Assembly (NCBI GenBank): GCA_963662945.1
Contig: OY759974.1
Coordinates: 256,001 to 320,000 of the forward strand
Source of the DNA: Arcobacteraceae bacterium
Lineage (GTDB): Bacteria > Campylobacterota > Campylobacteria > Campylobacterales > Arcobacteraceae
DNA length: 64,000 bases
Reading direction: 5' to 3'
Shown in pieces: positions 17,803 through 40,662 of this stretch. Positions within the stretch are counted from its first letter, which is position 1. Each line of letters begins with the position of its first letter. Below the pieces are notes generated by a model, which saw only the letters and a program-made list of their open reading frames with translations, did not search any database and was not told where the DNA came from. A program made the position numbers and the translations under genes.

Positions 17803-18705
17803 ATGAAAAATCTAATAATAAGTTTTTGTTTATTATTTAGTGTTAATGTGTATGCCCTTGATATGACAAGTGGTAATACTGTTGATGAAAATTTTAAAGA
17901 AGATAAACAAGAAAGTGATAAAAGAAATAGAAATCTTTCTTCTTCTGAAGAAAAATCAAAAACAAGAACAACTTCAGATGAAATATCTAATGCAAATTCT
18001 ACTGATTTAAAACTAATTGGACACCATGATGCACTAATTGTTCTTATGGCACTTGAAAAAGCAAATATTGAACCTTTCAAATCTTGTGAAATATTAACAA
18101 AACCAAGATTATTAGATGATTTTGGATTGGGTTGTAAAAGTTGGAATGGAATGATTAATTCAAATAGATGTTCTGCATTAGAAGAAGCAGGAAAAGCAAA
18201 TTTAACAGTTGAAAATCTGATTGATACAACACTTGTTGATAATCCAATAGATTTTAGAGAATTTACAGCTTGTGTTGGTTTATATGGTGCATTAATTGCT
18301 CAATCATTAAAAGAAGGAACTTTTGATGTTCAATTAAAAGATGAAGAATTAAAAGATCAATATTTATCACTTAATGATTCAATTGAATTTGATGAATGTA
18401 GATTAGATGGATCAGTATCAAATATTACTTGTGGTGAAACTACAATTAAAATAGGAGCAAATCCATCACTTACTTATGGTTCTATCCCTTTATATAGTGA
18501 TAGTGTTTATTATGGTTATTCATTAAGTATTAATGATAATAAAAGTAAGAAAAATTCTGAAACATTTAGTAAATCTAAATCTAAAAAAAGAAGTGAAGCA
18601 AATTCTCTTGCTAAAACTATTACTAATAATAAAACTTTAGGTATTTCAACTGCTAAAAATAGTGGTGTAAATATTGGTTTGAGTAAATTCTTACCTAATA
18701 AATAA
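17803..18705 (+). CDS. Secreted Cys-containing hypothetical protein
   Basis: Signal peptide ending VYA, several Cys, Ser/Lys-rich termini. Confidence 0.65.
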   Translation: MKNLIISFCLLFSVNVYALDMTSGNTVDENFKEDKQESDKRNRNLSSSEEKSKTRTTSDEISNANSTDLKLIGHHDALIVLMALEKANIEPFKSCEILTKPRLLDDFGLGCKSWNGMINSNRCSALEEAGKANLTVENLIDTTLVDNPIDFREFTACVGLYGALIAQSLKEGTFDVQLKDEELKDQYLSLNDSIEFDECRLDGSVSNITCGETTIKIGANPSLTYGSIPLYSDSVYYGYSLSINDNKSKKNSETFSKSKSKKRSEANSLAKTITNNKTLGISTAKNSGVNIGLSKFLPNK

Positions 18706-18794
18706 TCCTCACTTTTATAGTGGGGATCTTCCCCCTCACTTCAATATTTTATATTACAAAACAAGTTGAAACAAAACCAACCAAAGGAACAACT

Positions 18795-18920: not shown

Positions 18921-21900
18921 ATGAAAACAATAGCACCAATTAGCAGTTCAACTGCAAGTAAATATTACTATGAAAAAGATCCTATCTTTAATCCTGATGG
19001 TAAAGATCAAGCTAATATTGAATGGTATGGACAAATAGCAAAAGATTTTGGTATTGAAGGCAAAAATATTACAGGAGAAGAAGCTTACAATCTGTTTCAA
19101 GGTAAATCATTAGATGGTGAGGAACAATTATTAGATAGATCAAAATCTATAACAAGTGGTAATGAAAGAGCTGTATTTGATGCAATTTTAGCACCACCAA
19201 AACCTGTTTCAGCATTAGGATTAATGGAAGGTGGTGATAAAAGAATACTTGAACTTCATAAACAAGCTGTAAAAGCTACTATTGAGCATACTGAAAAAAA
19301 TATAATTGCTACAAGAGGTTATATTAAACAAGAAGATGGTTCTACTAAAAGAGAAACATATAAAACAGGTAATGCTTTGATTGCAAGTGTTAGTCATAGC
19401 ACTAATAGAAATAATGATTTGCATATGCACAATCATATGCTTATTTCAAATATGACTTATGATAAAAATACTAATTCTTATAAATCTTTAAATTTGGATT
19501 TTGTAAATGATCCAAAAGAAATGAACTCTGTTTATCAAAGTGAAATGATGAAAGGTATGAGAGAATTAGGTTATCAACTTGAAATTAGAGATAATGGTGC
19601 TTGGAATGTGGTTGGTTTTGATGAAAAAACAATTGAAGCAATGAGTACAAGAAAAGAAGAAATTGTTGATGCTAAATCAAAATTAGATTCTGATAATATT
19701 AATAAAATGACTAATAGAAAATTAGGATATGAAACTAAAAATGATAAAAATCCTAATATTACAGAAAAAGATATTCAAGAAAGAGCAAAAAATCAATTAG
19801 CTTCTGTTGGTACTACTATTCAAGAATTAAAAGAAAATGCTTTAAATCAGGGAAAATATGTTAATTATTTCTCAAGTGCAAAAGAAGTATTAGAATATAC
19901 TGCTGAAAAACTAACTCAATCAGATGCAAGATTTACTGAAAGAGAATTATTGAGTGCTGCTTCAGAAGTTGCACAAGGTGAATTTACTCATAAAGAATTA
20001 AAAAATGAATTAAGTAATGTAAAAAAGATTGGACAAAAAGAAAATAATGAACTTAAAAGATTAGGAACTGATCAAAAAGGTAATGAAGTTTTTACTACTA
20101 AAGAGATGCACCAAATTGAGAAAGAAAATATTCAATCTGTTAAAAATAATATTCAAGTTAATGGAATTATGACTAAGGAACAGGCTGAAGAAGCATATAA
20201 AGATTTTGCTAAAGAATATTTTGAACTTACAAAAGGTCAAAAAGATGCAGGTTTTCAAATATTAACTTCTACTGATCAAATTGGTGCAATTCAAGGTGAT
20301 GCAGGTACAGGTAAAAGTACAATGCTAAAATTTGTTGCTCATGCACTTGAATATCAAAATAGTAATGTTAAAGTTGCAGTTTCATCTTTAAGTAATAAAG
20401 CTGTTGAAGGTGCAAAAGGATTTTCACAAACTAAAGATGGTAAATCTTTTGAAGGTAGAACACTTCATAACTTAACTAAACAAGATGGTTTAAATAACTT
20501 TGTTAAAGGTGATCAAAAAGGACAAACTCAAAGAGTTAAAGATATTTCAAAAAATTTGAATGATATTCATTTATCAACTGGTAGTAAATCATTTAGTAAT
20601 AATAAAGGTTTTTCTATTGATCCAATGAATAAATTCTCAATAAATAGTTTTAAAAATTTTGAAACTTCAAGTAAAAGTTCAAAAACTAATTATCTTACTG
20701 GTTCTACTACTTATAAAAAAATAACAAAAGTTAAATCAGGTGAACATAAAGGTGCAACTAAAAATGAATCAACTACTGTAAATCAAAGTGGAACTTCTAT
20801 TAAATATCAATCAACAATTAAAGCAAATAATGGTGAAGTTTTTAAACAAAAAATTGAAACATTTAGTCCTGTAAAACTTGGTGGTAGAAATGGAAGTCCT
20901 ATTGCTAAGTTGGGTGAAAAAGTTATGTCAAGTTCTCATAGAGAAGTTAAAAATGATAAAGGTTTTTCTAAAGATAATAAATATTCAATTGCTGGAATTA
21001 CTTTTGAACATAAATCTGCACAAACATCTTATGGTGATCAACATAAAATGGGTATGAATATTTTAGGACTTGCTAAAGCTGAAAAAAATATTAGATCAAA
21101 TCAAACAAAAGATGGTTTAAAAGATACTACTGAAACAAAATTTAGTTTAATGGGATTAACTACTAAAAATATAGTTGAAGAAACTTATAATAAACAAGGT
21201 GAATTAACAAGTAAAGTATCAGTTAATGAAAAATCATTTATGGGTATTACTATTGGTAGAACCACTACATTAGATGATAAATCAAAAGATACTCATAATT
21301 ACTCAAAAAATGAAGATAAAATAAATAATCCAAAATTAGTTGATCAAAAAGAAATTTCTAATAAAGATGAAATGAAACAAGAATCAAAAAATATGGATAA
21401 AGATATAAAATCTGATAAAAAAGAAACTGCTTTATTGGTAGTTGATGAAGCAAGTATGATGAGTGCAAAAGATATGAATGTTATTTTTAAAGAAGTTGAA
21501 CAACTTAGTAAAGAGGGTTATAATGTAAGAGTTGAATTAATGGGTGATTCAAAACAATTACAAGCAATTGGTAGTGGTTCTTCATTTGATCAAATTAAAG
21601 AACAATTAGGTGATAAAGTAGCTGAAATGACTGAATCACAAAGACAAAGAAATACAACTGAACAAGGTATTACTAATCCTATTGCTCAAAAAGATATTAA
21701 AACTGCTTTTGATAATATGGAAAAAGCAGGTGCAATTAAAGAAGTTAAAGATCCTGATCAAAGAATTAATGCTGTGGTTGATGCAATTACTAAAAAAGAA
21801 AATGTTGATATTCAAAATTTTAAAGGTGAAACTGAAACTAAAAATATTGATTATAAAAATACAATTGGTTTAGCTTCTACTAACAAAGAAAATCAAGCAA

Positions 21901-22970
21901 TCAATGCAGGTGTTAGAAATGAATTAAAAAATCAAGGTTTAATCAAAAATGAAGTAAAAACTTCAATTAATGTTGGTGTGTTAAAAAATAGTATTAAACA
22001 ATCAAATGCTGTTAATTATGAAAAAGGTATGGAAGTAAAAACTTTTGAAAAAGTTAATGGAATGGCAAAAAATACTAATTATAAAGTAGTTGATATTAAT
22101 AAAAAAAATAATAGTTTAACACTAAAAACAACTGAACCTGATAAAAATGGTAATCATAAATATACTAATGTTAAAACAAAAGATATTGCAGGAAAAGTTA
22201 CTATTTCACAAAAAGAAGAAAGATCTTTTGGTGAAGGTGATAAAATTAGAATTACTGAAACTAATAAAAAAGCAGGTTTAACAAATTCTGATCAAGGAAT
22301 TATCACTAATATGGATCAAAAAAATAAAATTGCTACTATTGATTTTGGTGAAAAAGGAACTAAGCAAGTTGATTTAAAACAACAAAAAGGGATTGAATAT
22401 GGTTATTCAATGACAAATCACTCTGCTCAAGGAATTTCTGTTGATAGAGTTGTTGCAACTTTTGATACTTCAAAAAATGCTCAAATGAATACTATGAATA
22501 GTACATATGTTGCTATGTCAAGACAATCTGCAAAATCAGTTGCAATTACAGATAATAAAGAAAATTTGATGAATCAAGCAAGTAAAGAAGCTAAAAATGT
22601 TAGTACATTAGATAATCTAAAAGATGAAAAATCTAATAATAAAGTTGATCAAAAAACTGAAAATCAATCTAAAGAAAAGAATGATGTTTCAAAAGATAAA
22701 CTTGAAATTGATTCAAATAGTATCAAAGATGAAAAATCTAATAATAAAGTTGATCAAAAAATAGAAGATCAAAAAGATAAATCTGTTGATAAAGATAAAG
22801 TTAATAGAGTTGAAAGACAAACTATTAATGATTTAGGTGATTCAAAAAAATCTAATGATAAATTTAAAGCATTAGATAATATTAAAGATGAAAAATCAAA
22901 TGATATTTCAAAAGATAAATCTGATCAAAAAATTCAATCACCTCAAAAAGATCAAGGTATGTCAAGATAA
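18921..22970 (+). CDS. MOBF (TrwC/TraI-type) relaxase-helicase
   Basis: N-terminal YYY, 'FDAILAPPKPVS', HUH motif 'HSTNRNNDLHMHNH', Walker A QGDAGTGKS, VVDEASM, GDSKQL and 'T.HSAQG'. Confidence 0.95.
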   Translation: MKTIAPISSSTASKYYYEKDPIFNPDGKDQANIEWYGQIAKDFGIEGKNITGEEAYNLFQGKSLDGEEQLLDRSKSITSGNERAVFDAILAPPKPVSALGLMEGGDKRILELHKQAVKATIEHTEKNIIATRGYIKQEDGSTKRETYKTGNALIASVSHSTNRNNDLHMHNHMLISNMTYDKNTNSYKSLNLDFVNDPKEMNSVYQSEMMKGMRELGYQLEIRDNGAWNVVGFDEKTIEAMSTRKEEIVDAKSKLDSDNINKMTNRKLGYETKNDKNPNITEKDIQERAKNQLASVGTTIQELKENALNQGKYVNYFSSAKEVLEYTAEKLTQSDARFTERELLSAASEVAQGEFTHKELKNELSNVKKIGQKENNELKRLGTDQKGNEVFTTKEMHQIEKENIQSVKNNIQVNGIMTKEQAEEAYKDFAKEYFELTKGQKDAGFQILTSTDQIGAIQGDAGTGKSTMLKFVAHALEYQNSNVKVAVSSLSNKAVEGAKGFSQTKDGKSFEGRTLHNLTKQDGLNNFVKGDQKGQTQRVKDISKNLNDIHLSTGSKSFSNNKGFSIDPMNKFSINSFKNFETSSKSSKTNYLTGSTTYKKITKVKSGEHKGATKNESTTVNQSGTSIKYQSTIKANNGEVFKQKIETFSPVKLGGRNGSPIAKLGEKVMSSSHREVKNDKGFSKDNKYSIAGITFEHKSAQTSYGDQHKMGMNILGLAKAEKNIRSNQTKDGLKDTTETKFSLMGLTTKNIVEETYNKQGELTSKVSVNEKSFMGITIGRTTTLDDKSKDTHNYSKNEDKINNPKLVDQKEISNKDEMKQESKNMDKDIKSDKKETALLVVDEASMMSAKDMNVIFKEVEQLSKEGYNVRVELMGDSKQLQAIGSGSSFDQIKEQLGDKVAEMTESQRQRNTTEQGITNPIAQKDIKTAFDNMEKAGAIKEVKDPDQRINAVVDAITKKENVDIQNFKGETETKNIDYKNTIGLASTNKENQAINAGVRNELKNQGLIKNEVKTSINVGVLKNSIKQSNAVNYEKGMEVKTFEKVNGMAKNTNYKVVDINKKNNSLTLKTTEPDKNGNHKYTNVKTKDIAGKVTISQKEERSFGEGDKIRITETNKKAGLTNSDQGIITNMDQKNKIATIDFGEKGTKQVDLKQQKGIEYGYSMTNHSAQGISVDRVVATFDTSKNAQMNTMNSTYVAMSRQSAKSVAITDNKENLMNQASKEAKNVSTLDNLKDEKSNNKVDQKTENQSKEKNDVSKDKLEIDSNSIKDEKSNNKVDQKIEDQKDKSVDKDKVNRVERQTINDLGDSKKSNDKFKALDNIKDEKSNDISKDKSDQKIQSPQKDQGMSR

Positions 22971-23015: not shown

Positions 23016-23819
23016 TTAAAATGATGAAGAGAATGAACCCTTCACACCTGAATATTCTTCATTATATCCAACTGATATAGTTAAAACTGCATTTTTATAT
23101 TTATATCCAAATCCTGCCCCAACTGCACTTGCACCATTGAAATTCACTATATTTATAGCAAAACTTCTACTACCATTATTAAAATTAAAATCTAAGTTTG
23201 TTGCCATACCTGCACTTATTTTTAGATTTTCTCTTTTATCTATATCTTTTATACTTGCTTCTAATGCTGATATTCTATTTGAATTATTTGCAATATTAGA
23301 TGTATTAGTTGCAATATTTTCAGTATTTATATTAATTTTTCCTCTATTTTCACTAATATCACTTGTATTTTGAGCAATATTAGCTGTATTTGTTGCAATG
23401 TTTGATGTATTTGTTGCTATATCATTAGTGTTTTGAGCAATATTAGTTATATCACTTGTATTTTGAGCAACATCATTTTGTAAATCACTAATATCATTAG
23501 TGTTTTGTGTAATATTATCTGTATTAGTTACAATATCATTAGTATTTTGAGCAACATCATTTTCTAAATCAACTATATTAAAACCAACACAAGAACCATC
23601 ACTTTGCCAAGTATCATTTATAGTATTATCATCACCATCATCACAATCTGAACCAATAGTATAACCACTACAATATCCACCAATCAATGTATGCCAAGTA
23701 TCATTTACTGTATTAGCATTACCATCATCACAAGCATCCCCTTCTTCTAATGCTTGTAATTCACACAATACACCTGATATTAATAATAAAAATAATTGAA
23801 AGTGTTTTTGTTTTAACAT
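23016..23819 (-). CDS. YadA-like trimeric autotransporter/adhesin with Cys-rich head repeats
   Basis: Signal peptide, 2x 'G..CDDG..NT.NDTW', N/T heptad stalk (IATNTSN) and a beta-anchor ending in F. Confidence 0.75.
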   Translation of the reverse strand: MLKQKHFQLFLLLISGVLCELQALEEGDACDDGNANTVNDTWHTLIGGYCSGYTIGSDCDDGDDNTINDTWQSDGSCVGFNIVDLENDVAQNTNDIVTNTDNITQNTNDISDLQNDVAQNTSDITNIAQNTNDIATNTSNIATNTANIAQNTSDISENRGKININTENIATNTSNIANNSNRISALEASIKDIDKRENLKISAGMATNLDFNFNNGSRSFAINIVNFNGASAVGAGFGYKYKNAVLTISVGYNEEYSGVKGSFSSSF

Positions 23820-24145
23820 AATTTATCCTTTCTATTAAATGTACAAGTTGAACATTTTTCATAAAAAATATCTAAATCACAAACAACACATCTATGATCA
23901 AAATCTTTATTATTAATATCTCTGAATTTGGTTGTATTTCTGTTTTTTGTTGAACAATACACAACATTAGATGTTGGATCAAATAGTAATTTATTTGCTA
24001 TATAAGTAGATAAAGTTGGATTTAATGCTAAATTTCTTCTCACTAACATTGAAGGATCATTTGATAACTCTTCTTGCACCTTATAATCAACTGTTTTTAT
24101 TGCTATTTCTAATTTTTCTTTGTGTGTTAATTTACTTGTGTTCAT
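23813..24145 (-). CDS. LRV-like repeat protein with two C-terminal CxxC
   Basis: 'LSNDPSMLVRRNLALNP' and CVVC..CSTC. Confidence 0.55.
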   Translation of the reverse strand: MNTSKLTHKEKLEIAIKTVDYKVQEELSNDPSMLVRRNLALNPTLSTYIANKLLFDPTSNVVYCSTKNRNTTKFRDINNKDFDHRCVVCDLDIFYEKCSTCTFNRKDKLC

Positions 24146-24290
24146 AATCTTATTTCCTTGTGTTTTAAAATTTGTTATACTTTGTTATAAGACAAACTTT
24201 TCAGAAATAATATTTTTAATACTTTTTATTAAATGATTTTAATCAGGAAAAATTAGACATAAAAAAACCTTCCCTGTTAAGAGAAGGTTG
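24143..24290 (-). repeat. Terminator-promoter-RBS block duplicated at 36233-36377
   Basis: ~145 bp near-identical block upstream of unrelated genes. Confidence 0.85.
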
Positions 24291-24309
24291 AATGAAATAA
24301 TTGTTGAGT

Positions 24310-25305
24310 TTATTTATAATTTGAACATATACCTTGTGCATAATATCTTACTTGTCCATTCTTATCATAAGTAAAATTACCTGCAATTTGTTCTGTATTA
24401 ACTCCAATAACTGTACCATCATTAAGTGATCTTAATTCAATAATATTTTGATTACTATATACTTGAATAATTATATATGTATGTGAAGTATCAACCATTG
24501 ATTTATTAGCTAAATTCACAATATCTACACCATTATTGAATTTAATTTTTGTTCCTTTTTCATAATAATCTTCAGTTATTTGATTTTTCTTTTGATCAAA
24601 ATTAACATTGTAGTTACTTGTAAAAATTTCTTTATCAATAAATTGATCAGCTCTATTAAATTCACCTTGAATAACTAAATTTAAGAATTTCCAAAATTTA
24701 GGATCTCTATATCCTACACCTCTAACTTTTGATTGATTACCATTTTTCCAAATTGAATAAGCAAAATTAGTTGCACTAATCCCATCCCCTTTAGAATATC
24801 TTTCAGTTCCATATTTATAAGTTCTAAATCCTTTTGCAAATGGTGGGTTAGTTTCAAGAATCTTTTTAAAACCTGCATCTGAATTAAGTCCTGCATCAGT
24901 CAATCTAAACATATATGAAAAAGTATTATATAAAAGATTTATATCACCATCATTTTTATATTTTTGATCAATATGATGAATATATCCTTCAACTTGAGAA
25001 CAAAATCTTCCTGTATTATAATTATACACATCACCATCAGTAGATTTAATTTGAAAATTATAATCCATACCAATAAAATCTGACATAGCAATTTTACAAG
25101 ATTTAATTGCTACTACTTCATTAACTCTTATTGAAGAATCTGAAGTATCTCTATTATCTAAATTAATAGCATTTTTATCAAATATTGATGCTAAATTCCC
25201 ATCAATATTTGAACAGAATTGTTTTTTCTCTGCTTCTGTATTAGCATATGCACTTATTGATAATGCACCTATTAGTGCTATTGTTGTTATTGTTTTTTTA
25301 AACAT
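24310..25305 (-). CDS. Secreted protein, paralog family copy 3 with C-terminal extension
   Basis: MFKKTITTIALIG, 'YIHHIDQKYKNDGDINLLY' and 'DPKFWKFL....EFNRAD'. Confidence 0.7.
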   Translation of the reverse strand: MFKKTITTIALIGALSISAYANTEAEKKQFCSNIDGNLASIFDKNAINLDNRDTSDSSIRVNEVVAIKSCKIAMSDFIGMDYNFQIKSTDGDVYNYNTGRFCSQVEGYIHHIDQKYKNDGDINLLYNTFSYMFRLTDAGLNSDAGFKKILETNPPFAKGFRTYKYGTERYSKGDGISATNFAYSIWKNGNQSKVRGVGYRDPKFWKFLNLVIQGEFNRADQFIDKEIFTSNYNVNFDQKKNQITEDYYEKGTKIKFNNGVDIVNLANKSMVDTSHTYIIIQVYSNQNIIELRSLNDGTVIGVNTEQIAGNFTYDKNGQVRYYAQGICSNYK

Positions 25306-25457
25306 ATTTTGTTTCCTTTAAATTTTAATTTGTTTAGGAAAAATTAATTCCCCTACTTAGTTATATCAAAAATAAAAAATAAAAATATTTTTTAATATTT
25401 TTTATTAACTTCTTGATCAAAAAAAATCCACACTTAATAAAAAGTGAGGATTAATTA

Positions 25458-26135
25458 CTATAAAAGTATTTTAATAGCTTCAGATCTAATTTTTTTACCA
25501 TCATATTCTTCAACTAATTTATCAGCACTTTCAAAATTTTGTTGTATTATGTATGATAAAAATTGATGAAATTTAGGATCATTAAATCCTACATATCTTT
25601 CAGATCCTTGATAACCACTTTGAAAAATGAAGTCAAACATTTCACAAGCATGATAATTATAAACTTTTAATGATAAAATATTTTCACCATAAAATGTGTT
25701 TCTTAATATAGAATTATTAGGAATAAATTTTATAAGTTCACTATTTTTATTTATTCCTCTACTAAAAAATGAAACATATGAATATAAAAGTTCAATATTA
25801 TCTTCTTTCTTATATCTATCATAAATATGTTCTATATATTTATTAAGATTTTTTCCAAATCTTATAAGATTATATGTTCTCATGTTCCCTGAAACATCTT
25901 TAATTGTAAAACCATAATCCATTCCAAGTAATTTTATTGTTGTATTACAATATCCACCACCATTTGAATCACCAAACCATCCAACTTGTTTGTATCTTTC
26001 AACATCTATTTTATTACTAATAGTTGATTGTAATCCATTAACAATTTTTTGATCTATTGGATTTAATGATTTTCCAAATAAACTTATTGATAATGCACCT
26101 AATAGTGCTATTGTTGTTATTGTTTTTTTAAACAT
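25458..26135 (-). CDS. Secreted protein, paralog family copy 4
   Basis: MFKKTITTIALLG (ATG at 26135), 'YIEHIYDRYKKEDNIELLY' and 'DPKFHQFLSY..NFESAD'. Confidence 0.7.
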   Translation of the reverse strand: MFKKTITTIALLGALSISLFGKSLNPIDQKIVNGLQSTISNKIDVERYKQVGWFGDSNGGGYCNTTIKLLGMDYGFTIKDVSGNMRTYNLIRFGKNLNKYIEHIYDRYKKEDNIELLYSYVSFFSRGINKNSELIKFIPNNSILRNTFYGENILSLKVYNYHACEMFDFIFQSGYQGSERYVGFNDPKFHQFLSYIIQQNFESADKLVEEYDGKKIRSEAIKILL

Positions 26136-26137
26136 AA

Positions 26138-26431
26138 TTAAATACCACTCATTTGTTCTTGACATAAACTCATTGATGTAAAAAACAGATAAATATATTT
26201 TTCATTATAATGAATTACAGATGTACCACCTGCACTTTCTACAATGAACTGTTTTTGTGTCACTATATCTCTTAATTTATCTTCTGTATATTCACATTCT
26301 TTATTAGCAAGATTATAAAAAATATTTGCTTCTTCATTTGTAAGTGATCTTTTTTCCCATTTTACATCTGCCATTGCACTTGTTGATAATGCACCTAATA
26401 GTGCTATTGTTGTTATTGTTTTTTTTAACAT
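26138..26431 (-). CDS. Small secreted protein sharing the same signal peptide
   Basis: MLKKTITTIALLGALSTSAMAD; upstream DNA nearly identical to 25306-25410. Confidence 0.65.
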   Translation of the reverse strand: MLKKTITTIALLGALSTSAMADVKWEKRSLTNEEANIFYNLANKECEYTEDKLRDIVTQKQFIVESAGGTSVIHYNEKYIYLFFTSMSLCQEQMSGI

Positions 26432-26603
26432 ATTTTGTTTCCTTTAAATTTTAATTTGTTTAGGAAAAATTAATTCCCCTACTTAGTTATATCAAGAAAA
26501 TAAAATAAATATATTTTTTAATACTTTTTATTAAGTTCTTGATATTTTATGTTCAATAGAACATATTAAAATAATTTTTTTATTTCAAAATCAAATAAAA
26601 TAT

Positions 26604-26963
26604 TTAATCATCATATCCCATATAGTTCACATCATCATAAAATTCTTTTGCACTTAATCCTAAACTTAAAGCAAAAAAAGCAACTATAAATCCAACTATT
26701 ATTGCTATTATCCAATGTTGTGAAGATATTGCTAATGAAAATCCAAATATTCCCCATCCTATTGAATAAGCATATATTAAATAATCACCAAATTTTGTTT
26801 GAACAATAAACCATAAAACAAAAAATAATATAAATCCAAAAAAACCATTATCAGTTATATTTGATAAAATAAAACTCAAAATAATAGTTGTAATAGTAAA
26901 ATATCCTATTCCTACATTATTCACCTCTGATTGATTATTCCCTTGTCTTATATAACTACCCAT
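26604..26963 (-). CDS. 4-TM membrane protein downstream of ardA
   Basis: Hydrophobic 119-aa ORF with RBS. Confidence 0.65.
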   Translation of the reverse strand: MGSYIRQGNNQSEVNNVGIGYFTITTIILSFILSNITDNGFFGFILFFVLWFIVQTKFGDYLIYAYSIGWGIFGFSLAISSQHWIIAIIVGFIVAFFALSLGLSAKEFYDDVNYMGYDD

Positions 26964-27005
26964 TTTAAATCCTTTTTTTTAATTACATAAAAGCCAAATT
27001 GACTT

Positions 27006-27518
27006 TTATGCTACTCTGTATATTCTCCCATTATGTAAATCATAATCAAAAGATAAATCACTTGCCATTGCATCAACATCAAGATAGTTTTCTAAATGTG
27101 GTGGTATTTCTCCAAATAAACCTTGATCAATAAATTCCCAAGCTAAATCTTTGAAATTATCATAATCATAAACTTCTAAATCATCAACTTTATTAATTGC
27201 TTCTTCTACTGAATAATTTAAACTATCTGTTAAATATGATAAACTTTCTATCTGATCATCATCTAAATCTAAATTATTATATGTATTAAATACTTCTTCA
27301 ATATTTGAATTTTCTGTAATAATTCCTAAAAAATCATTTTCCCAGTCTGCCATAAATAGTTCTAAATCATCTGAATTAAGTCCATTTAGTCTTTTAGCTT
27401 CTTTTACATACTCATAAATCTCTTCTATATCTGTTTCTTGATCAAACCATTTACATAATAATATTCCTCCATTGTTATATAATTCCCATTCTTCTACTGC
27501 TATACTTAGATTTTCCAT
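27006..27518 (-). CDS. ardA: Antirestriction protein ArdA
   Basis: Very acidic; motifs 'YNNG.L..KW', 'FMADWE' and 'GEIPPHLENYLDVDAMASDL'. Confidence 0.93.
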   Translation of the reverse strand: MENLSIAVEEWELYNNGGILLCKWFDQETDIEEIYEYVKEAKRLNGLNSDDLELFMADWENDFLGIITENSNIEEVFNTYNNLDLDDDQIESLSYLTDSLNYSVEEAINKVDDLEVYDYDNFKDLAWEFIDQGLFGEIPPHLENYLDVDAMASDLSFDYDLHNGRIYRVA

Positions 27519-28066
27519 TGTAATTTCCTTATAAAATGATTTTTCCTTTTAGAAGATTTTTTTAAGAGGGCTTGGAGATTTTTGTAATAACTTTTAATTA
27601 AGTTAAAACAATCCTCACCCTTTTAATCAACTTTCAGGATTTTTCCCCTTAGTTAGTTTCTTCAATCAGGCTTTGAAAATTAAATTGTCATTTTCATAAC
27701 TTAGAATAAAATACAAATTAGTATAATTTTATATTTAGTGTAAGTTTGCAATATGTAAGATTTGAATTGGAAAAGTTTGAAGAAACTCAATAAGATGAAA
27801 AATAAAAGTTGATCAATAAAGGTGATTGGTTTTATTAATGATATGTAATAAAAAGTTATTACCAAAATTTTAGTTTTTTGTGTTTGAATGTAATGAAAAC
27901 TTATATTATTTGATCAAAGTTTAAATGCTAAGTATTTATAATTTATGTTCTTGATCAAATACCTTGAAATTTTTTTGTTTCTTTTTTAAAAGAAATATTC
28001 ATATTTAAAAATATGAATAATGTTTTAATATATAAAAAAGGTAAATACCATTTATATATATTATTA
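27516..28066. promoter_or_regulatory. ~540-bp upstream repeat 1 with a long imperfect hairpin (27578-27868); Frpo/ssi-like single-stranded promoter candidate
   Basis: Nested inverted repeats; homologous to 29990-30527 with compensatory changes. Confidence 0.75.
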
Positions 28067-28250
28067 ATTAAGTATCTGAATAAAGTTGTTGAAACAAGTC
28101 AAGATTTTTAATTATCCTTGTGAAGAGAGTATTGCCAAATACTTAAATATTATCATAGAGATATGAAATATTTTTCTGATCAAAAAAACCATAACAAATA
28201 ATTCAAATGATGAAAAAAATACTTCATAGTATTTTTGTAATCTTTTGTTT
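28065..28250 (+). repeat. Dispersed structured module A3 (diverged)
   Basis: Palindrome variant AAAAATACT-TCAT-AGTATTTTT. Confidence 0.85.
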
Positions 28251-28327
28251 AATTACCTTTCAAATAATAATGGATTTTTTCAAGGTCTTTATTGACTTTA
28301 TCCATTGCACCTAATAGTGCTTCATTT

Positions 28328-28720
28328 TTATTTATAAATAATTATATCTGATATTAATGCAAGAATTTTATCATCACCCTCATTTTCTTGTAAGTATTCT
28401 CTTAGCTCTTTAAAATTATTTATAATTCTGTTTTTTACATACTGATATAAATCTGCATCTATTAATTCTTTTTCTAATTTTTCATCAATATTTTTTCCAT
28501 TATCAACAAAAACTAAATCATATTTTACTTTTATTTCTGTTGTATTACTTTCTAACTTATAATCATTATATTTTGGATCAATAGAATAATCTATTTTTTT
28601 TAGATCACCATTAACAAATTCACCTTGTGCAATTATTTTATTATTTGATTTAAAATCAAATCCAATATATCTTATTGCAACTCTATTTGTTTCTAATAAT
28701 TGTTCTAATTTTTCATACAT
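28328..28720 (-). CDS. Hypothetical protein
   Basis: 130 aa with AAAGGA RBS. Confidence 0.65.
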   Translation of the reverse strand: MYEKLEQLLETNRVAIRYIGFDFKSNNKIIAQGEFVNGDLKKIDYSIDPKYNDYKLESNTTEIKVKYDLVFVDNGKNIDEKLEKELIDADLYQYVKNRIINNFKELREYLQENEGDDKILALISDIIIYK

Positions 28721-28803
28721 TATATTCCTTTATTTTTAAAGCAAATATTATATTCAAAATAACTTTAATTATTCTATTTTAACTCTTCTTTTGAATCTTT
28801 TGT

Positions 28804-28986
28804 TTAATTACCTTTCAAATAATAATGGATTTTTTCAAGATCTTTATTGACTTTATCCATTGCACCTGTATAGCTCCAACATATAGTTTTATCTTCTTCA
28901 ACATAGTTTTCAATTAACTCTTTAATTTCTTCTAACAATACTAATGCTTTATTTTTATTTTGTATATATACTTTTGTTGATGTCAT
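28804..28986 (-). CDS. Small hypothetical protein (ArdC-like operon)
   Basis: 60 aa with AGGAG RBS; its 3' end is duplicated at 28239-28312. Confidence 0.6.
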   Translation of the reverse strand: MTSTKVYIQNKNKALVLLEEIKELIENYVEEDKTICWSYTGAMDKVNKDLEKIHYYLKGN

Positions 28987-29060
28987 TTGTTTCTCCTATA
29001 ATAAAAATTCACCAATTTTAAATATTAAATCATCTACTTTTTCTAATATCTCTTTTAATT

Positions 29061-29357
29061 TCATAATAATTCCTGTTTAAGAATTTCAAGCTCTTTCCAT
29101 TTTTTTCTTGATAAAAATAAACTTTCTTTTAATTCTTGAATTGTGGTTTCTAAATGATTGATAATCATTTCTTTTTTAGATGATTTATGTTCACCAAAGA
29201 ACTTCTTGAAAAAATTATAACTTCTATCAATATAAAATTGTTCTTCTTCCTCTGAAATATGCACTAAATAGTCACTCTTTATTTGAATAGTATCTTTTAG
29301 TTGATTACCTTGATTTACAATGATATTTTGTTGCTTTTCTAATTCTGCTAAATTCAT
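29061..29357 (-). CDS. Hypothetical protein (ArdC-like operon)
   Basis: Likely start MNLAELEK at 29357. Confidence 0.55.
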   Translation of the reverse strand: MNLAELEKQQNIIVNQGNQLKDTIQIKSDYLVHISEEEEQFYIDRSYNFFKKFFGEHKSSKKEMIINHLETTIQELKESLFLSRKKWKELEILKQELL

Positions 29358-29367
29358 AATAAGTCTT

Positions 29368-29544
29368 TTATTGAAAGTCAATAGAATAGTTGATATTATC
29401 ATCACTATGTATCATATTTAAAGCTTTATCATATGCAATATTACAAGCTTCATCCCAATCATCAGCATCTACTTCAATTTCTTCAAAGGCATAAGGCATA
29501 TTTTTATCAAAATCTTCATCATACCAAACTATTTCTACTCTCAT
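29368..29544 (-). CDS. 58-aa highly acidic protein (not in ORF track)
   Basis: AAGGAG RBS; MRVEIVWYDEDFDKNMPYAFEEIEVDADDWDEACNIAYDKALNMIHSDDNINYSIDFQ. Confidence 0.7.
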   Translation of the reverse strand: MRVEIVWYDEDFDKNMPYAFEEIEVDADDWDEACNIAYDKALNMIHSDDNINYSIDFQ

Positions 29545-29584
29545 AATTTACTCCTTTTAGATATTTTTATAAATAAAATCCCTT

Positions 29585-29992
29585 TTAAAAAGGAACTTTA
29601 TCTGCACTTTTTTCTGCTTCTATTTGTTCATTAATAATTTGAGATAACATCTTTTCTTGAACATTATCTTCAACTAATTGTTGTCTGTTATATACTGTGT
29701 AATATCTTACTGTTTCATCTTTCTTAGTAAATAATTGAACTCCATATTGTTTATCATCTTTGAATGTTAAATCCATTTCATCCATATCTTTTTGAGTTAG
29801 CCAAGTATTATCTGAATAGTTTTCTTTTTTAGCTCTCAAATCTAATAATTTTAAATTTAAACCTTTATATTCATTACCTTTAATACTTGTATGTACTTCT
29901 ATGTTACTATTGTGATTAGATACACTTATAATTGCTCTTTTGTAAATATCATTGATATTAAAAGTCTTTGCTGTTTTAGTTGTTGTTGTCAT
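29585..29992 (-). CDS. ArdC N-terminal (ssDNA-binding)-like protein with SSB-like tail
   Basis: 'G..YKGLN...L......Y....WLT' and 'YYTVYNRQQ'; ends ADKVPF; no HExxH domain. Confidence 0.75.
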   Translation of the reverse strand: MTTTTKTAKTFNINDIYKRAIISVSNHNSNIEVHTSIKGNEYKGLNLKLLDLRAKKENYSDNTWLTQKDMDEMDLTFKDDKQYGVQLFTKKDETVRYYTVYNRQQLVEDNVQEKMLSQIINEQIEAEKSADKVPF

Positions 29993-30527
29993 TGTAATTT
30001 CCTTTTAAAAATGTTTTACCTTTTTTGAAGATTTTAAGAGGGTTTTGGATGATTTGTTTAAACTTTTAATTAAGTCAAAACATATCCCCTCTTTTTCTTA
30101 CTTCAAGGTTTTACCTCTTCAGTTAGTTTCAATCAGGCTTTGAAAATTAAATAGTCAATTTCATAACTTAGAATAAAATATAAATTAGAATAATTTTATT
30201 TATAGTATAAGTTTGTAAGGTGTAAGATTTGAATTGGAAAAGTTTGAAACTCACTTAGAGTTAAAATGTAGTAAGAATAAAAGAGATATATGTTTTCTTA
30301 ATGGTATGTAATAAAAAGTTTAAATTAATCACTGTTTATTGTGTTTGAATGTAATGAAAACTTATATTATTTGATCAAAGTTTAAATGCTAAGTATTTAT
30401 AATTTATGTTCTTGATAAAATACCTTGAAATTTTTTGTTTCTTTTACAAAAGAAATATTCATATTTAAAAAATATGAATAATGTTTTAATATATAAAAAA
30501 GGTAAATACCATTTATATATATTATTA
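29990..30527. promoter_or_regulatory. ~540-bp upstream repeat 2 with a long imperfect hairpin (30050-30331)
   Basis: Homolog of 27516-28066. Confidence 0.75.
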
Positions 30528-30712
30528 TTACTCTATGTAAATGAAAAACACAAAAGGTTACAAAAATGCTATGAAGCATTTTTTCCACCATTTGATAAAT
30601 TTGTTATGGAATAATGAATTGATAAGTGTTTTGAACTTTATCTTTATATTCTTTCAACTGTAAAGTTTTTTTCATAAGGATAATTAAAGAGCTTGAAAAG
30701 TTTCAATAACTT
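30494..30712 (-). repeat. Dispersed structured module, inverted variant B2
   Basis: Matches B1; its distal part is the reverse complement of the start of A2. Confidence 0.85.
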
Positions 30713-32223: not shown

Positions 32224-34122
32224 TTACAATCCTAATTCATCTAATTTTGATTTTGGCTGCTCAACTGGTGGAATTTTATTTGAAGTTTTTTCTTCAATTT
32301 TTTCTTGTTGATCATTATTTTGTTCAACAACTTGTCCACCACCATTTGAAGTTGGTTTTGTATCTTCAGATTTTTTATTTTGATTTTTAATTAGATTTGA
32401 AATATCTAAATCATTTCTTGGAATAAATCCTTTTGCAATTTGAGGATAATTATCTTCATCAGTAAATTTCTTTTCAATTAAAGCCCAATCATAAGAACCA
32501 TTTAGATAATAATATGTATTCTTTTTTAATTGTCCTAATTCAGAAGGTAGAATTGCTTTTTCAACTTTTTCACTTGTTGTATAACTTGATCCTTCTCTTG
32601 ATGCTTGATTTTCTGCACCTGTTGAAGTTGTCATTGAAGTTGATTGAACTTTTCCATCACCAATGATGTTTGCACAAAATTCTCTTGTATCAGGATCACC
32701 CAATTTAAAAATCAATTTACTTGAACAAGAACCTACAATTGCAAGTGCTAATTCTTTTCCATATATACTTGTCATTTTTCCAAAATCTTGAATACCTAAC
32801 CAAAATGCACCACCTAAACTTCTTGCTAAAAGAACACCTTGAATAATTGAAGGAATCTTTTTTAACATTCCTAATTCATCTAAAATAAAATAAACTCTTC
32901 TTGTATCACTATCTGAAAAAGATAATAATGTTTTAATTATTGAATCAACAAATACTGCAATTCTTGTTGAGTTTAATTCATCATTCTTAACATCATTTAC
33001 TAAGAAGATTGTTGAGTGTCCATCTTCACATTGTAACCATTCTTCTAAATCTAATTCTTCCCCATCATTAGAATCAGGTAATGATGTAAAGAACCCAACT
33101 TTTGATCTAAAATTACTCATAAAGATACCTGCTTGACTTTCAGAAGATGTTAAATGTCCATAAGCAATTTCTGCCCCTTGAACACCTTCAAGTTTATTAG
33201 CAAGTTGAGATGGACTTAATTTGATAAGTTGTTTAACTACTATATTTGTTTTCTTATCATTTACAATACAATATATTAAAATACCTTTTAATATATCCCT
33301 TGCTGTATCAGTCCATATTGTATCTTTTTCATCAGGGTTTCTTGTAATAATTGATGCAATCATTGAATCAATATCATCAATTAATTTGATCATAGAAAAT
33401 ATATTAAAATTCAAACTTCTTGAATCTGAAAAGTTAAATATATAATCTGTTTCAGGATTATAAAATCTTTCAATCCAATCAAATTTTACTGTGTGAACTA
33501 AATATCTTCCATAAGATCTTTTTTTTCTTAATTCTCTATAAAATTGATTAAGTGCAACTGTTTTTCCTGAACCTGCTGATCCAAATAATATTGCATGAGA
33601 AGTTTCAGTTTCCTGATCAACTTTAATATTATTTGTAATAGTAACACCTTCAATTTTATCTTTCTTTTGAAGTTCTTCAAGTTGTTTTTCTGTTAGAGTT
33701 TTTGATCCTTTAAGATGTTGATCTTCTAAAACTTTATTTGCAAATTTATTAGCAATTATTTTTTTAAGATAAATTGTTGTTGCAAATATTACAAAAAACA
33801 ATGAAAGAAATATTGTTAAAAGAAGATCAATATTATCCATAATTTTTGGTAAGAAATGTTCATATGCTCCTCTTGTTGAAACTAATTCACCTCTTAACAT
33901 CATATTATCTTGAAATGTAAATGTTGATTTTAAAACTGCTTCAAAATATAAAAGATTGATCTTCTCTGTTGGAAAAAAAGCACCAACAATATATAAAACT
34001 AATATTGCTCCAACTATTCCTGCAATTGCAGGATATAGTAAATGTTTTTGCCCTCTTGATATTGAATTATCAACAACATCAAATTGAGCAACTGTACTAA
34101 ATTTTTTTTGATTTTTTATCAT
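32224..34122 (-). CDS. Type IV coupling protein (TrwB/TraD family)
   Basis: Two N-terminal TMs, Walker A GSAGSGKT, Walker B FILDELG and 'RSLGG...LGIQD'. Confidence 0.93.
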   Translation of the reverse strand: MIKNQKKFSTVAQFDVVDNSISRGQKHLLYPAIAGIVGAILVLYIVGAFFPTEKINLLYFEAVLKSTFTFQDNMMLRGELVSTRGAYEHFLPKIMDNIDLLLTIFLSLFFVIFATTIYLKKIIANKFANKVLEDQHLKGSKTLTEKQLEELQKKDKIEGVTITNNIKVDQETETSHAILFGSAGSGKTVALNQFYRELRKKRSYGRYLVHTVKFDWIERFYNPETDYIFNFSDSRSLNFNIFSMIKLIDDIDSMIASIITRNPDEKDTIWTDTARDILKGILIYCIVNDKKTNIVVKQLIKLSPSQLANKLEGVQGAEIAYGHLTSSESQAGIFMSNFRSKVGFFTSLPDSNDGEELDLEEWLQCEDGHSTIFLVNDVKNDELNSTRIAVFVDSIIKTLLSFSDSDTRRVYFILDELGMLKKIPSIIQGVLLARSLGGAFWLGIQDFGKMTSIYGKELALAIVGSCSSKLIFKLGDPDTREFCANIIGDGKVQSTSMTTSTGAENQASREGSSYTTSEKVEKAILPSELGQLKKNTYYYLNGSYDWALIEKKFTDEDNYPQIAKGFIPRNDLDISNLIKNQNKKSEDTKPTSNGGGQVVEQNNDQQEKIEEKTSNKIPPVEQPKSKLDELGL

Positions 34123-34133
34123 AATTTTTTCCT

Positions 34134-34667
34134 TTAAAATCTGTAAGTTTCAACAATACCTTCTAATAAATCTTCAAATGGTAATGTGTGTTTCTCTGAA
34201 GAATTTGTTATTGGTAATTTTGCTACTGATATTTCATTTTGATTGATGTTTGTTATTGCAAGTAAATTGTTTTTAGCTGTAATAATTACATCACCTTTTT
34301 TATAAGAAGAAACATTTTGTTTTTCTTGATCTGTTAATTTTAATTCATACATTTTTTGAAATAAAAAAACTTCTGCATCATTTAATCTTTTAGTATCAAG
34401 ACTATTTATTAAATTTCTCATTGATGTTTCAAAAATATCTCCCATAGTATTTTTAATATCATTTATAGATTTTTTATTTTCATAACTTAACTTTTGAATT
34501 TCCTGTTCAAAATTAATATTGCTTGTATTTTGATTGTTATTTGGATTTAAGATTTGATTTTTAATCAAATGTTTCTTATCAATACCTGTTTCTTTTTCTA
34601 TCTGATCAAATAGATCTGCTTCTTCTATTGATAATCTGATTGATACTACTTTTGTATTAGCACTCAT
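34134..34667 (-). CDS. RHH relaxosome accessory protein (TrwA/MobC-like position)
   Basis: N-terminal 'TKVVSIRLSIEE'; immediately upstream of the T4CP. Confidence 0.6.
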   Translation of the reverse strand: MSANTKVVSIRLSIEEADLFDQIEKETGIDKKHLIKNQILNPNNNQNTSNINFEQEIQKLSYENKKSINDIKNTMGDIFETSMRNLINSLDTKRLNDAEVFLFQKMYELKLTDQEKQNVSSYKKGDVIITAKNNLLAITNINQNEISVAKLPITNSSEKHTLPFEDLLEGIVETYRF

Positions 34668-34739: not shown

Positions 34740-35420
34740 ATTTTTACTTTTTGTGTTTTTTAATAAAATTTTGTTGTAAACATTGATTTAATCCACAAAT
34801 AGGAAGCTAATAAGGGGTAAAAAAGTGAAATGTTTACACTTTTATAGTGTAAACACTAAAATCATCAAATATAGGAATTATGGGGTTTTTAGAGAATTTT
34901 GATAATCATCAAAATATAGCTAATTATTAGGAATTAGTGGCTTTACTTGTGTAAACAAGGTACAAACCCCCTGTTGGGAGTCTTGTACCTTCTCTAAATT
35001 AGAAAATCATTTATGATTTTCAGCATCTTGAAAAGATGCCATATATTCTCAAAATGAGAATGACAAACTCTCAACATATTCTCAAAATAAGAATGTTTAA
35101 CCTATCTAATTCCTATAAAACAAATAAAAAAAAGATTTATAAATCTGATTAAAACTTTTTTATTACAAAATATATTCATTGAAAGTGTTTTAAAATTTAA
35201 TCATAAGAGAGACAAGCCAATAGTGAAAAACTTTTTAAAAAAAACTTTTGAATAATTGGAAATATTTTATTATTAAACTCAATACTTTCAATTAATATCA
35301 TTTTCATAATATATTTGAAATTCAAATATGTAATATTTAGAATGAATATAGTTTTGGTTAGTTTAAATAGTTGATTAGTTTGTTTGAATAAGGGGTTCAT
35401 CCCCTGAAAAGAAACCTTTT
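34740..35420. promoter_or_regulatory. Putative oriT / single-strand origin region
   Basis: ORF-free region upstream of RHH-T4CP with 4 TGTAAAC boxes and a cluster of inverted repeats at 34928-35115. Confidence 0.5.
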
Positions 35421-35524: not shown

Positions 35525-36235
35525 CTAAATTTGCATCATTGCTTTGAATGTATTATTTGATATTTGTGAATATTTATTTTCAGCATTATCACTTTTTAAA
35601 TATGATAAAAATTTATCAAGTGGTATTGTTGTTAATTTATTTGAATTTTTACTTTTCAAATGAACTTGAATAATATTTTTACTTTCAGTAATTATAAATA
35701 ATGGAATATCTGTAGGTTTAGTTTTTACTATTTTTCTTAATGAATATTTTGTTGTTTTCTTTAATCCATAAATAAAACTAACTGGTTTCACTTGAATACC
35801 AATTTTTATATCTCCATCAATTAAAAAATCTATACCTTTTTGACAATCTTCATCAGGATTTGAATGTGATATTGTATATCCTGTTGGTAAATGAAAATTT
35901 AATTCATCAAATACTTTCTGTTCTCTTTTAATCCCTATGAATGATTTGTTAATGAATGTTTCTGTTACATATTCTTTTAATGTGTTGTAATTGATACTCT
36001 TTTCAAATTGTTGCCATTTATTTGTTCTTTCTTCAATAAATGATGATAAGTCTTTTTTGATTTTTTTCATTAAATATTTATTATAAAACTCAATAAATAT
36101 TTCTTTTGTAATTTGATTTAGATTATATTCTTTTAATATTTCTTGAGCAACTTCCATTACATAAAATCCACAATCTATTGGTGAATTGATTTTATATTTG
36201 TTAAATGATTGGTTTATTTGATATGAACTTGTCAT
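35525..36235 (-). CDS. MjaI-like PD-(D/E)XK restriction endonuclease
   Basis: 'SFIGIKREQKV', 'DED..KGIDFLI' and 'IGIQVKP.SF' resemble the RE_MjaI family. Confidence 0.6.
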   Translation of the reverse strand: MTSSYQINQSFNKYKINSPIDCGFYVMEVAQEILKEYNLNQITKEIFIEFYNKYLMKKIKKDLSSFIEERTNKWQQFEKSINYNTLKEYVTETFINKSFIGIKREQKVFDELNFHLPTGYTISHSNPDEDCQKGIDFLIDGDIKIGIQVKPVSFIYGLKKTTKYSLRKIVKTKPTDIPLFIITESKNIIQVHLKSKNSNKLTTIPLDKFLSYLKSDNAENKYSQISNNTFKAMMQI

Positions 36236-36797: not shown

Positions 36798-36943
36798 TTT
36801 TTTTATCCTTTTATTTGATTTGATCAAATTAATGACCATTATTGGTTATAGGTAGGTAAATACTAAAAAAAGAAGAATAAAAAAATCCCCACTTAATTAA
36901 AAGTGAGGATAACTTGTTATTTGTTTTATCAAAATGCTATATT

Positions 36944-40565: not shown

Positions 40566-40662
40566 GATAGATAATTTAAAGATAGAAAAGGTAAATACCA
40601 TTTATATATATTAATATATATATGGTTTTTTAAAACAAATTAAAATTTAAAGGAAACAGATT

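Follow-up and report, generated by a model that had tools for sequence, protein, structure and literature searches.

Paired covarying hairpins before ardA and an ArdC-like operon in an Arcobacteraceae element: candidate single-stranded DNA promoters

Introduction

In the F plasmid, the single-stranded DNA (ssDNA) promoters Frpo1 and Frpo2 are 92% identical, lie 5 kb apart and each head an operon (PMC9849209). In pESBL three classes of ssDNA promoters are described, including a paralogous class 2 pair situated before ardA and klcA and mapped by 5′ rapid amplification of cDNA ends (5′ RACE) (PMC12672017), and a large similarity-based survey of ssDNA promoters exists (PMC11541004). Here we analyse a 64,000-nt stretch (hereafter, the window) of the 2.5-Mb single-contig chromosome of an Arcobacteraceae bacterium (assembly GCA_963662945.1, contig OY759974.1, positions 256,001 to 320,000), in which an integrated element, from ~6.1 to 50.3 kb of the window, carries two long hairpins, A and B, one before ardA and the other before an ArdC-N-like gene. 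To our knowledge, ssDNA promoters have been experimentally shown only in the enterobacterial F and IncI plasmids, the additions made by the survey being mainly by similarity.

Class 1 (Frpo1/Frpo2 of F and ssi1-3 of ColIb-P9) is like hairpins A and B in having a long hairpin of about 300 nt on the template strand of the downstream genes, in occurring as a pair of related copies, separated by a few kb and each at the head of an operon, in being placed ahead of genes for early establishment or anti-defence, and in the dual transcription and priming role proposed for it (PMC9849209, PMC12672017, PMC11541004). The F promoters are GC-rich (PMC13478746), whereas the G+C content of the hairpins described here is about 22%; moreover, the host here belongs to Campylobacterota, the carrier is an integrated, apparently mobilisable element without genes for a type IV secretion system (T4SS), and there is no clear −35 element. 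Class 2 (ssp2 of pESBL and F) is likewise a paralogous hairpin pair before anti-restriction genes, one of which is ardA (the other being klcA/ardB), and it was found without homology, by hairpin mining (PMC12672017). For class 2, start sites were mapped by 5′ RACE and a roadblock role was shown (PMC13478746), whereas hairpins A and B are known from sequence. They are also unrelated to class 2 in sequence, longer and AT-rich.

Single-strand origins (sso) offer a further comparison. The ssoA and ssoU elements of rolling-circle plasmids and sso1 of ICEBs1 are orientation-specific imperfect palindromes of 150-300 nt which act only as single strands and are read by the host RNA polymerase; they have conserved RSB and CS-6 motifs and also serve after conjugative mobilisation. 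Unlike the hairpins described here, they give rise to a short primer and are not coupled to a downstream gene.

Similarity to class 1 was sought by blastn (word size 11) with positions 27519-28070, which gave no match in 72,556 plasmid records, a set whose inclusion of F and IncI plasmids is expected and unconfirmed. The motifs and taxon names of the hairpin family described below are absent from 10 readable supplementary files of PMC11541004. A literature search combining Frpo with Campylobacter returned only unrelated work, and one combining single-stranded promoter, Campylobacter and ardA gave nothing relevant among the matches listed.

We argue that hairpins A and B are ssDNA promoters of the Frpo/ssp kind, possibly serving also as a source of RNA primer for the complementary strand, and we put the probability of this reading at about 0.6.

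Two paralogous hairpins with covarying arms

The hairpins, the genes behind them and the sequences on both sides are as follows.

27578-27868, + strand: hairpin A, an imperfect hairpin of 291 nt (from folds, palindrome scan, ladder and arm swap)
30050-30331, + strand: hairpin B, an imperfect hairpin of 282 nt, paralogue of A (from folds, palindrome scan and ladder)
27519-27577, − strand: proximal leader A with ribosome-binding site (AAGGAAAT...ATG), 59 nt from hairpin base to start codon (from sequence)
29993-30049, − strand: proximal leader B with ribosome-binding site, 57 nt (from sequence)
27006-27518, − strand: ardA, 170 aa (Pfam ArdA E = 1.1e-14, 55.7 bits; phrog_2059, anti-restriction protein)
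29585-29992, − strand: ArdC-N-like gene, 135 aa, the first behind hairpin B (Pfam ArdcN E = 1.1e-6, 29.3 bits, cut-off 22.6)
27880-28065, no strand assigned: distal module A, about 98% identical to 30340-30525
30340-30525, no strand assigned: distal module B (from alignment with module A)

The ArdC-N-like gene also matches phrog_7245 (anti-restriction, E = 3e-4). Over 548 nt the two leaders (27519-28070 and 29993-30527) share 85% identity, with ~80% in the hairpin part and ~98% in the distal module of ~190 nt. The + strand, which in hairpin A is the template strand of ardA, folds as DNA with an energy of −47.2 kcal/mol in A and −45.0 kcal/mol in B (z = −4.3 and −5.6), and none of 100 shuffles was as good; the − strand reaches −44.5 and −41.6 kcal/mol. 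When the window was compared with its own reverse complement, A (E = 4e-30) and B (E = 2e-22) were the sole strong long palindromes in 64 kb, the other matches being AT-rich and about 57-60% identical.

An earlier note on this DNA had described the two leaders as homologous sequences that fold into long imperfect stems with covarying arms and precede ardA and an ArdC-like gene. The identity of the leaders, the fold z-scores, the arm swap described below and the Pfam matches bear out this description, as does the DNA folding which the note had proposed as a check, with both + strands more stable than 100 of 100 shuffles. The arms it quoted are found at 27655 (AGTTTCTTCAA), 27777 (TTGAAGAAACT), 30125 (AGTTTCAA) and 30244 (TTGAAACT), and the ladders of copy B have other self-complementary blocks instead of the pairs GTAATAACTTTT/AAAAGTTATTAC and ATCAACTTT/AAAGTTGAT.

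Each left arm pairs far better with its own right arm than with that of the other copy. The energies are −47.2 kcal/mol for A with A and −46.2 for B with B, compared with −23.0 when the left arm comes from A and the right arm from B, and −25.2 in the opposite combination, a cost of about 22 kcal/mol for swapping. The same exercise across 18 members of the hairpin family described in the next section showed the cognate arm to be the best partner in every distinct lineage. We also ran a covariation test on the inner 164 nt of 32 related family members, using 45 pairs taken from per-sequence duplex folds: 88.8% of the cells pair (80.2% in shuffles), and changes on both sides occur at 24 pairs (15.0 ± 2.0 in shuffles) and in 115 cells (38.7 ± 5.1 in shuffles). 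None of 500 shuffles reached the observed value in any of the three measures, and slid controls gave 39-56% pairing.

Palindromes are typical of operators, and the hairpins might act as duplex DNA, that is, as palindromic operators or cruciforms bound by a regulator of the anti-restriction operons, with covariation keeping the symmetry of binding. The distal modules, nearly identical between the copies, hold more short palindromes, and motifs of the TTGATCAA type recur. Such an element, however, does not need pairing to run uninterrupted over 290 nt while the sequence varies freely, most of the stem being devoid of conserved sequence, and it offers no reason for the preference for G:T over A:C at mismatches, or for the bias of energy towards one strand, that are reported below; we regard a duplex operator as quite improbable. 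The distal module taken separately is possibly a duplex promoter or operator. Module A has several short palindromes, and its last 34 nt recur at 11672-11705 and, in near-identical form, at 40575-40616.

A 54-aa open reading frame (ORF) within hairpin A (27701-27865, − strand) was rejected as coding, as it has no counterpart in B, and an inverton was rejected on the ground that pairing continues through the entire segment and not just at its ends. Rfam gave no matches at the gathering score over the window, and the one hit elsewhere in 27500-30600 (ToxI, E = 0.79) is at chance level.

A hairpin family in mobilisable elements

The hairpins belong to a family carried by mobilisable elements of Arcobacteraceae and Sulfurimonas. 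Full-length relatives were found by blastn in two genomes of a sister genus; a blastn search of 184 genomes of the host's family with the leader gave 'matches' in 109 of them, a tally that is meaningless and was discarded, most of it being short AT-rich noise. A search pattern for the hairpin apex, derived from four sequences, had sites in 6 of the 184 family genomes (none with the reversed control). Of the stretches it matched in a collection of species genomes, 3 were true and 3 due to chance, and the corresponding figures for metagenome contigs were 15 and 4. Among 21 loci compared, 17 have an ORF and 4 lack enough flank. The genes behind these hairpins encode a J-domain-like protein (14 loci), ArdA (2), an ArdC-N-like protein (1) and an 88-aa protein (1), and the estimated distance from the hairpin base to the start codon is 42-61 nt in 14 of the 17 loci with an ORF. 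ArdA stands behind the hairpin in two different lineages, in the window and at locus L049 (a metagenome-assembled genome of Sulfurimonas).

Since the pattern fixes the apex, two further sets were picked without regard to hairpin sequence. The first was anchored on the J-domain-like protein, the gene for which is present in 41 of the 184 family genomes. The protein has 153-158 aa with the HPD-type motif KKLHPDVGG, matches phrog_15863 (unknown function; an example is L069:9784-10245) and is often encoded in multiple copies per genome (seven matches in G082, five in G118). We fetched 30 such loci, 27 of them with at least 321 nt upstream, and 22 of these 27 have a palindrome of about 190 nt or longer that begins 30-100 nt from the gene; the apex pattern is present in just 5 of the 30.

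The second set was anchored on ArdA, encoded in 13 of 401 Campylobacterales genomes. Besides that of the window there are 12 ArdA loci, 11 with enough flank, and upstream palindromes of at least 120 nt were found at five of the 11. One of the five comes from the same genus as the window and is a true relative whose apex differs. The other four (L077, L078, L081 and L084) form a second, unrelated family of ~140-nt hairpins (range ~130-145 nt), which accounts for 4 of 4 ArdA loci in a genus of another Campylobacterales family; upstream of ardA, these hairpins are separated from it by about 90-100 nt.

In the loci examined the hairpin is always directly upstream of the gene start and in the same orientation; it behaves as a portable module with a fixed place, at a near-constant distance, before different genes. 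Portability of this sort, ahead of unrelated genes, would also be expected of a selfish palindromic repeat with no function of its own, similar to a miniature inverted-repeat transposable element (MITE). MITE or Correia-type repeats would be present in many dispersed copies in varied contexts, whereas the 2.5-Mb genome has two copies, both coupled to genes, and a third was not found; in the loci examined, every copy stands at the beginning of a gene. The module keeps its orientation and its spacing from the start codon, and the arms are kept paired by compensatory change. A selfish repeat is hardly credible.

The strand that folds better

A stem made of Watson-Crick pairs is equally stable on either strand, and the symmetry is broken by G:T pairs and by the types of mismatches. 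In the protein-anchored J-domain set, the DNA energy is lower on the template strand of the gene in 22 of 22 loci (17 clusters at 88% identity), and the folds contain 84 G:T pairs on the template strand and 13 on the other; the pattern-found set gives 18 of 18 in favour of the template strand, with 58 and 13 G:T pairs. RNA parameters favour the template sense in 28 of 29 family members, and the same preference is seen in 5 of 5 for the second ArdA hairpin family together with locus L080. At the 45 fixed consensus pairs, G:T exceeds A:C by 68 to 30 (per sequence, higher in 22, lower in 7 and equal in 3), a smaller bias than in free folds. Template-strand folding as in the Frpo/ssp promoters is therefore seen family-wide, and is weak or absent in copies A and B.

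The bias does not come from local composition, as the surrounding + strand is C-rich and the hairpins are G-rich: the GC skew of the + strand is −0.25 over 23016-29992, compared with +0.11 and +0.18 within the two hairpins, and the template-sense skew over 29 hairpins is +0.25. A deamination bias linked to transcription would push in the direction opposite to the one observed.

These results speak against a purely duplex element and against a structure in the mRNA leader, that is, a − sense processing site or regulator of stability or translation, transcribed from the distal module. The location of the hairpin between a conserved upstream module and the ribosome-binding site would suit such a leader, and copy A is indeed marginally better in the − sense with RNA parameters (−68.1 vs −66.9 kcal/mol). 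Across the family, however, the mRNA sense is 4 to 29 kcal/mol less stable in 28 of the 29 members with these parameters, the positions compatible with G:U are biased towards the other sense, and the ribosome-binding site is outside the hairpin, which makes an mRNA leader structure very unlikely.

Strand bias alone would be alike for a folded strand of DNA and for an RNA of that sense. It would fit equally well a + sense (template-sense) antisense hairpin RNA that regulates the leaders of ardA and the ArdC-like gene, and a TAAAAT-like motif is present on the + sense opposite the ribosome-binding site, with a T-rich run after hairpin A. A conserved promoter on that side was not found, though, the T run is not conserved in relatives and there is no Rfam match; we give an antisense RNA little credence. 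In contrast to an mRNA leader structure, which does not predict it, an ssDNA promoter of the Frpo type needs the better-folding strand to be the template of the gene, as is observed.

Promoter-like elements in the right arm

The aligned right arms of 24 representatives (18 of which were found without the apex pattern) share a block made of TTTAGt, a spacer of 16-18 nt, yAnAnT and then TGAAATGA. The hexamer yAnAnT is kept at the homologous position in 24 of 24, with A2, A4 and T6 each at 90% or more. The corresponding stretches in the window, taken as putative elements from this conservation, are:

27734-27761, + strand: promoter-like element of right arm A, TTTAGT at 27734-27739, 16 nt, TAAGAT at 27756-27761
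30201-30228, + strand: promoter-like element of right arm B, TATAGT at 30201-30206, 16 nt, TAAGAT at 30223-30228

Once the strand is folded, the element is directed down the stem to the gene, with the left arm, leader and gene as its template; in the duplex its direction is the opposite, away from the gene. In most relatives a conserved, purine-rich internal loop measuring about 15 by 17 nt is left unpaired, and the hexamer sits on its 5′ edge. Judged from the alignment, the likeness of the block to the −35 and −10 elements of a promoter is suggestive only.

The earlier note had singled out other hexamers of the right arm, of the form TAnnnT; they are present at 27791 and 30253 and are not conserved in relatives. 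The note was correct in stating that both leaders lack the TATAAC cassette, which, with its conserved leader, precedes about a dozen other genes of the element (counted from the sites listed below). A left-arm TAGAAT facing a right-arm TAGTAT as an invariant apex promoter was rejected as an artefact of the search pattern, which is present in 5 of 30 loci, and position 2 is not kept. A generic terminator scan found no terminators.

Mobilisation genes and the transferred strand

The features that bear on the direction of transfer are the following.

18921-22970, + strand: MobF (TrwC/TraI-type) relaxase-helicase (Pfam TrwC 163 bits; NCBIfam MobF 172.8 bits, cut-off 100)
23016-29992, − strand: run of minus-strand genes, including the genes behind both hairpins
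32224-34122, − strand: type IV coupling protein (T4CP), 632 aa (Pfam TrwB_AAD_bind 229 bits)
32224-34667, − strand: ribbon-helix-helix (RHH)-like/T4CP operon, in the same direction as the hairpin genes
34750-35110, no strand assigned: candidate origin of transfer (oriT), where inverted and direct repeats cluster upstream of the RHH-like/T4CP operon (by analogy)

The relaxase gene is convergent with the genes behind both hairpins. The T4CP gene is preceded by that of a 177-aa protein with a weakly RHH-like N-terminus (DUF6290, E = 0.008, a weak match). No T4SS genes are present among the 62 ORFs scanned in the window, and the integrated element therefore looks, from its gene content, like a mobilisable one, in which the hairpins need not occupy a classical leading region.

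In the R388-type layout, transferred by analogy, nic of the 34750-35110 cluster would be on the + strand, and the RHH-like/T4CP operon together with the oriT-like cluster would fit transfer of the + strand, the strand favoured by the earlier note. Nic-site motifs gave scattered chance matches only. The inverted repeats of the cluster include TGTTTACACT / AGTGTAAACA and CAAGGTACAA / TTGTACCTT, and there is a tandem ATATTCTCAAAAT[GA]AGAATG repeat; in genome G011 a CAAGGT...ACCTTG repeat lies between the gene for the J-domain-like protein and the mob operon (L073, about 18150-18210).

The TrwC family is absent from the genomes of five of five relatives, whose relaxases accordingly differ from that of the window. 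One and the same hairpin family is found alongside MobF, MobA/VirD2-type and Mob_Pre relaxases, and the association with three relaxase families, together with the two copies in one element, argues that the hairpin is not oriT itself.

The hairpins could instead be single-strand initiation sites only, of the ssi/sso type, where the folded strand would recruit RNA polymerase or primase to prime the complementary strand while the gene uses an ordinary duplex promoter. The structural evidence and the strand bias apply to such sites just the same, and Frpo is described as both a promoter and a primer source (PMC12672017). There is a conserved unpaired bulge of the GGTGTG type near the base of the right arm, and the hairpin would be near the 3′ end of the transferred strand in L049, and likewise in the window if oriT is at 34.9 kb, a position that would suit priming of the whole strand. 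Against priming alone stand the fact that the hairpin is always followed, after about 42-61 nt and a conserved leader, by the start of a gene, and this in four gene families; the absence of the TATAAC promoter usual in the element; and the hairpins of G039 and G011, which fill most of the intergenic space and leave tens of nt for another promoter. We consider a role in priming alone unlikely.

Weighing the evidence

As in the Frpo/ssp promoters, the hairpins are long and stable, by their fold energies, z-scores and covariation, and they stand before anti-defence genes, by the ArdA and ArdcN matches in the window and by ArdA again at L049 and L080. The proposal of a Campylobacterota equivalent of Frpo, made in the earlier note, stands as far as real, paralogous and covarying hairpins before anti-restriction genes and family-wide folding of the template strand are concerned. 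It does not extend to the hexamers then chosen, and a number of observations weigh against an ssDNA promoter.

Part of them concerns the structure. The sequences used in the covariation test are related and not independent, and the structure tested was derived from these same sequences. Mapping A onto B position by position shows double changes kept in 4 cases and broken in 2, with 14 breaks on one side only; the kept changes are few because blocks were replaced with register shifts, and the arm swap was used instead. RNAalifold on MAFFT alignments recovered base and apex only (32 pairs), or no pairs, and for that reason the tested structure came from per-sequence duplex folds. In strandedness, copy A departs from its family: it has one G:T pair in the fold of the + strand and four in that of the − strand, it is the sole exception with RNA parameters (the energies are given above), and at the fixed pairs it has one G:T and three A:C, copy B being neutral (three of each).

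The promoter-like elements meet with similar difficulties. The 'bubble' region of the relatives is largely paired in copies A and B, and a generic sigma-70 scan showed no enrichment (26 sites, 30.8 expected). In AT-rich DNA, −10-like windows are not unique: each sense has five windows that keep A2 and T6 at 90% or more, and of windows that also keep position 1 there are three on the template sense and none at 70% or more on the gene sense.

As to transfer, the rule that places nic on the + strand points to the − strand if applied to the + orientation of the MobF relaxase, and an oriT at ~34.9 kb with a nicked + strand would make the hairpins enter late, not first. The orientation of the hairpin genes with respect to mobilisation genes varies. 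They are co-directional with a MobA/VirD2-type relaxase operon in G011, G154 and G104, co-directional with T4CP in G003 and the window, convergent with T4CP in L047 (which also has a relaxase-helicase C-terminus) and L060, and divergent from a Mob_Pre-type relaxase in L049. Under no single rule would the folding strand always be the transferred one.

Proposed mechanism

If the hairpins are ssDNA promoters, they would work as follows. When the element exists as a single + strand, through conjugative mobilisation or rolling-circle copying from oriT, ~290 nt would fold back on themselves, and the 3′ (right) arm would supply the non-template strand of a promoter (TTTAGT, 16-18 nt, yAnAnT), the −10-like hexamer lying, in most relatives, at the edge of a purine-rich internal loop of the size of a transcription bubble. 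Host RNA polymerase would then copy the 5′ (left) arm and, after it, the ~60-nt leader with its ribosome-binding site, and proceed into ardA or the ArdC-N-like operon, so that anti-restriction proteins would be made before a second strand exists. We infer four parts of this scheme, namely the activity on a single strand, the use of the hexamers, the start site and the strand transferred.

A more specific proposal, which is possible and which we advance tentatively, doubting it more than we trust it, is that the hairpins form a Campylobacterota-specific class of ssDNA promoters made for a −35-independent polymerase, in which the loop would be a ready-made bubble with the TA of the −10-like hexamer at its 5′ edge. 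This class would be a standard early switch of many Arcobacteraceae mobilisable elements (about a fifth of the family's species genomes) and would mostly drive the J-domain-like protein, a candidate for a new class of establishment factor. As the hairpin is often situated close to one end of the element, it may also prime almost the whole incoming strand, which would couple anti-restriction expression to strand conversion.

Other features of the element

Further genes of the element and of the two hairpin operons are listed here.

6241-7509, + strand: tyrosine integrase
14021-15067, + strand: Rep3-type initiator
26604-26963, − strand: 119-aa ORF, which probably comes second in the hairpin-A operon (no family match)
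28328-29544, − strand: four small ORFs of the hairpin-B operon, 58, 114, 60 and 130 aa (no significant family)

Beyond the 119-aa ORF, the next TATAAC promoter is at 26492. The 60-aa ORF of the hairpin-B operon has a marginal PHROG match (phrog_17926, E = 7e-4, unknown function), and the operon ends ahead of a terminator-like hairpin near 28215-28240.

The TATAAC cassette consists of [AC]TATAAC, a spacer of about 45-60 nt, AAAGGAAACAAAAT and ATG, and is found ahead of many element genes on both strands, with sites at 37153, 36851, 34725, 26492, 25366, 10412, 9719, 9440 and 8872 on the − strand and at 16699, 17297 and 30768 on the + strand. At 26492 and 25366 both the leaders and the first residues encoded behind them are nearly identical.

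A different module of ~190 bp is present in at least five copies in the element, in both orientations (16471-16655, 28070-28245, 40385-40565 and about 12400-12640, with inverted copies at 11700-11790 and 30530-30620). It holds a bidirectional terminator-like hairpin, AAAAATGCT / AGCATTTTT, and a promoter-like TTGGCA, 16 nt, GATAAT, and it parts gene blocks like a cassette boundary. The stem ATCCTCACT / AGTGGGGAT is present twice, at 18706-18730 (+) and, inverted, at 36888-36915. The copy at 36888 is a classical terminator, whose T tract lies on the − strand and whose wobble pair falls on the RNA sense. At 18706 the T tract is missing, and the stem is succeeded by a third copy of the arm, immediately upstream of the relaxase operon.

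The cargo of the element comprises a pentapeptide-repeat protein (9949-10353, −), an MjaI-like restriction endonuclease homologue (35525-36235, −) and a complete type I restriction-modification system (42639-48990, +); the element thus bears both restriction and anti-restriction functions. Upstream of the Rep3 gene, 2.5 kb of repeat-rich sequence without long ORFs (11550-14020) may hold a replication origin (iterons).

Implications

The device itself is a known one. What the window adds is most likely a new sequence family of it in a new phylum, with integrated mobilisable elements as carriers, with long, AT-rich hairpins, and mostly with a gene for a J-domain-like protein behind them. The family-wide G:T bias provides a simple computational test for parting hairpins of a DNA strand from structures of mRNA. 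If our reading is true, the ssDNA promoter would be a general device, tied neither to conjugative plasmids nor to GC-rich hairpins. The hairpin would then be a marker of the early-expressed genes of Arcobacteraceae elements, among them those for ArdA, the ArdC-N-like protein and the widespread J-domain-like protein, and a test case for how a polymerase with weak dependence on the −35 element reads a folded strand.

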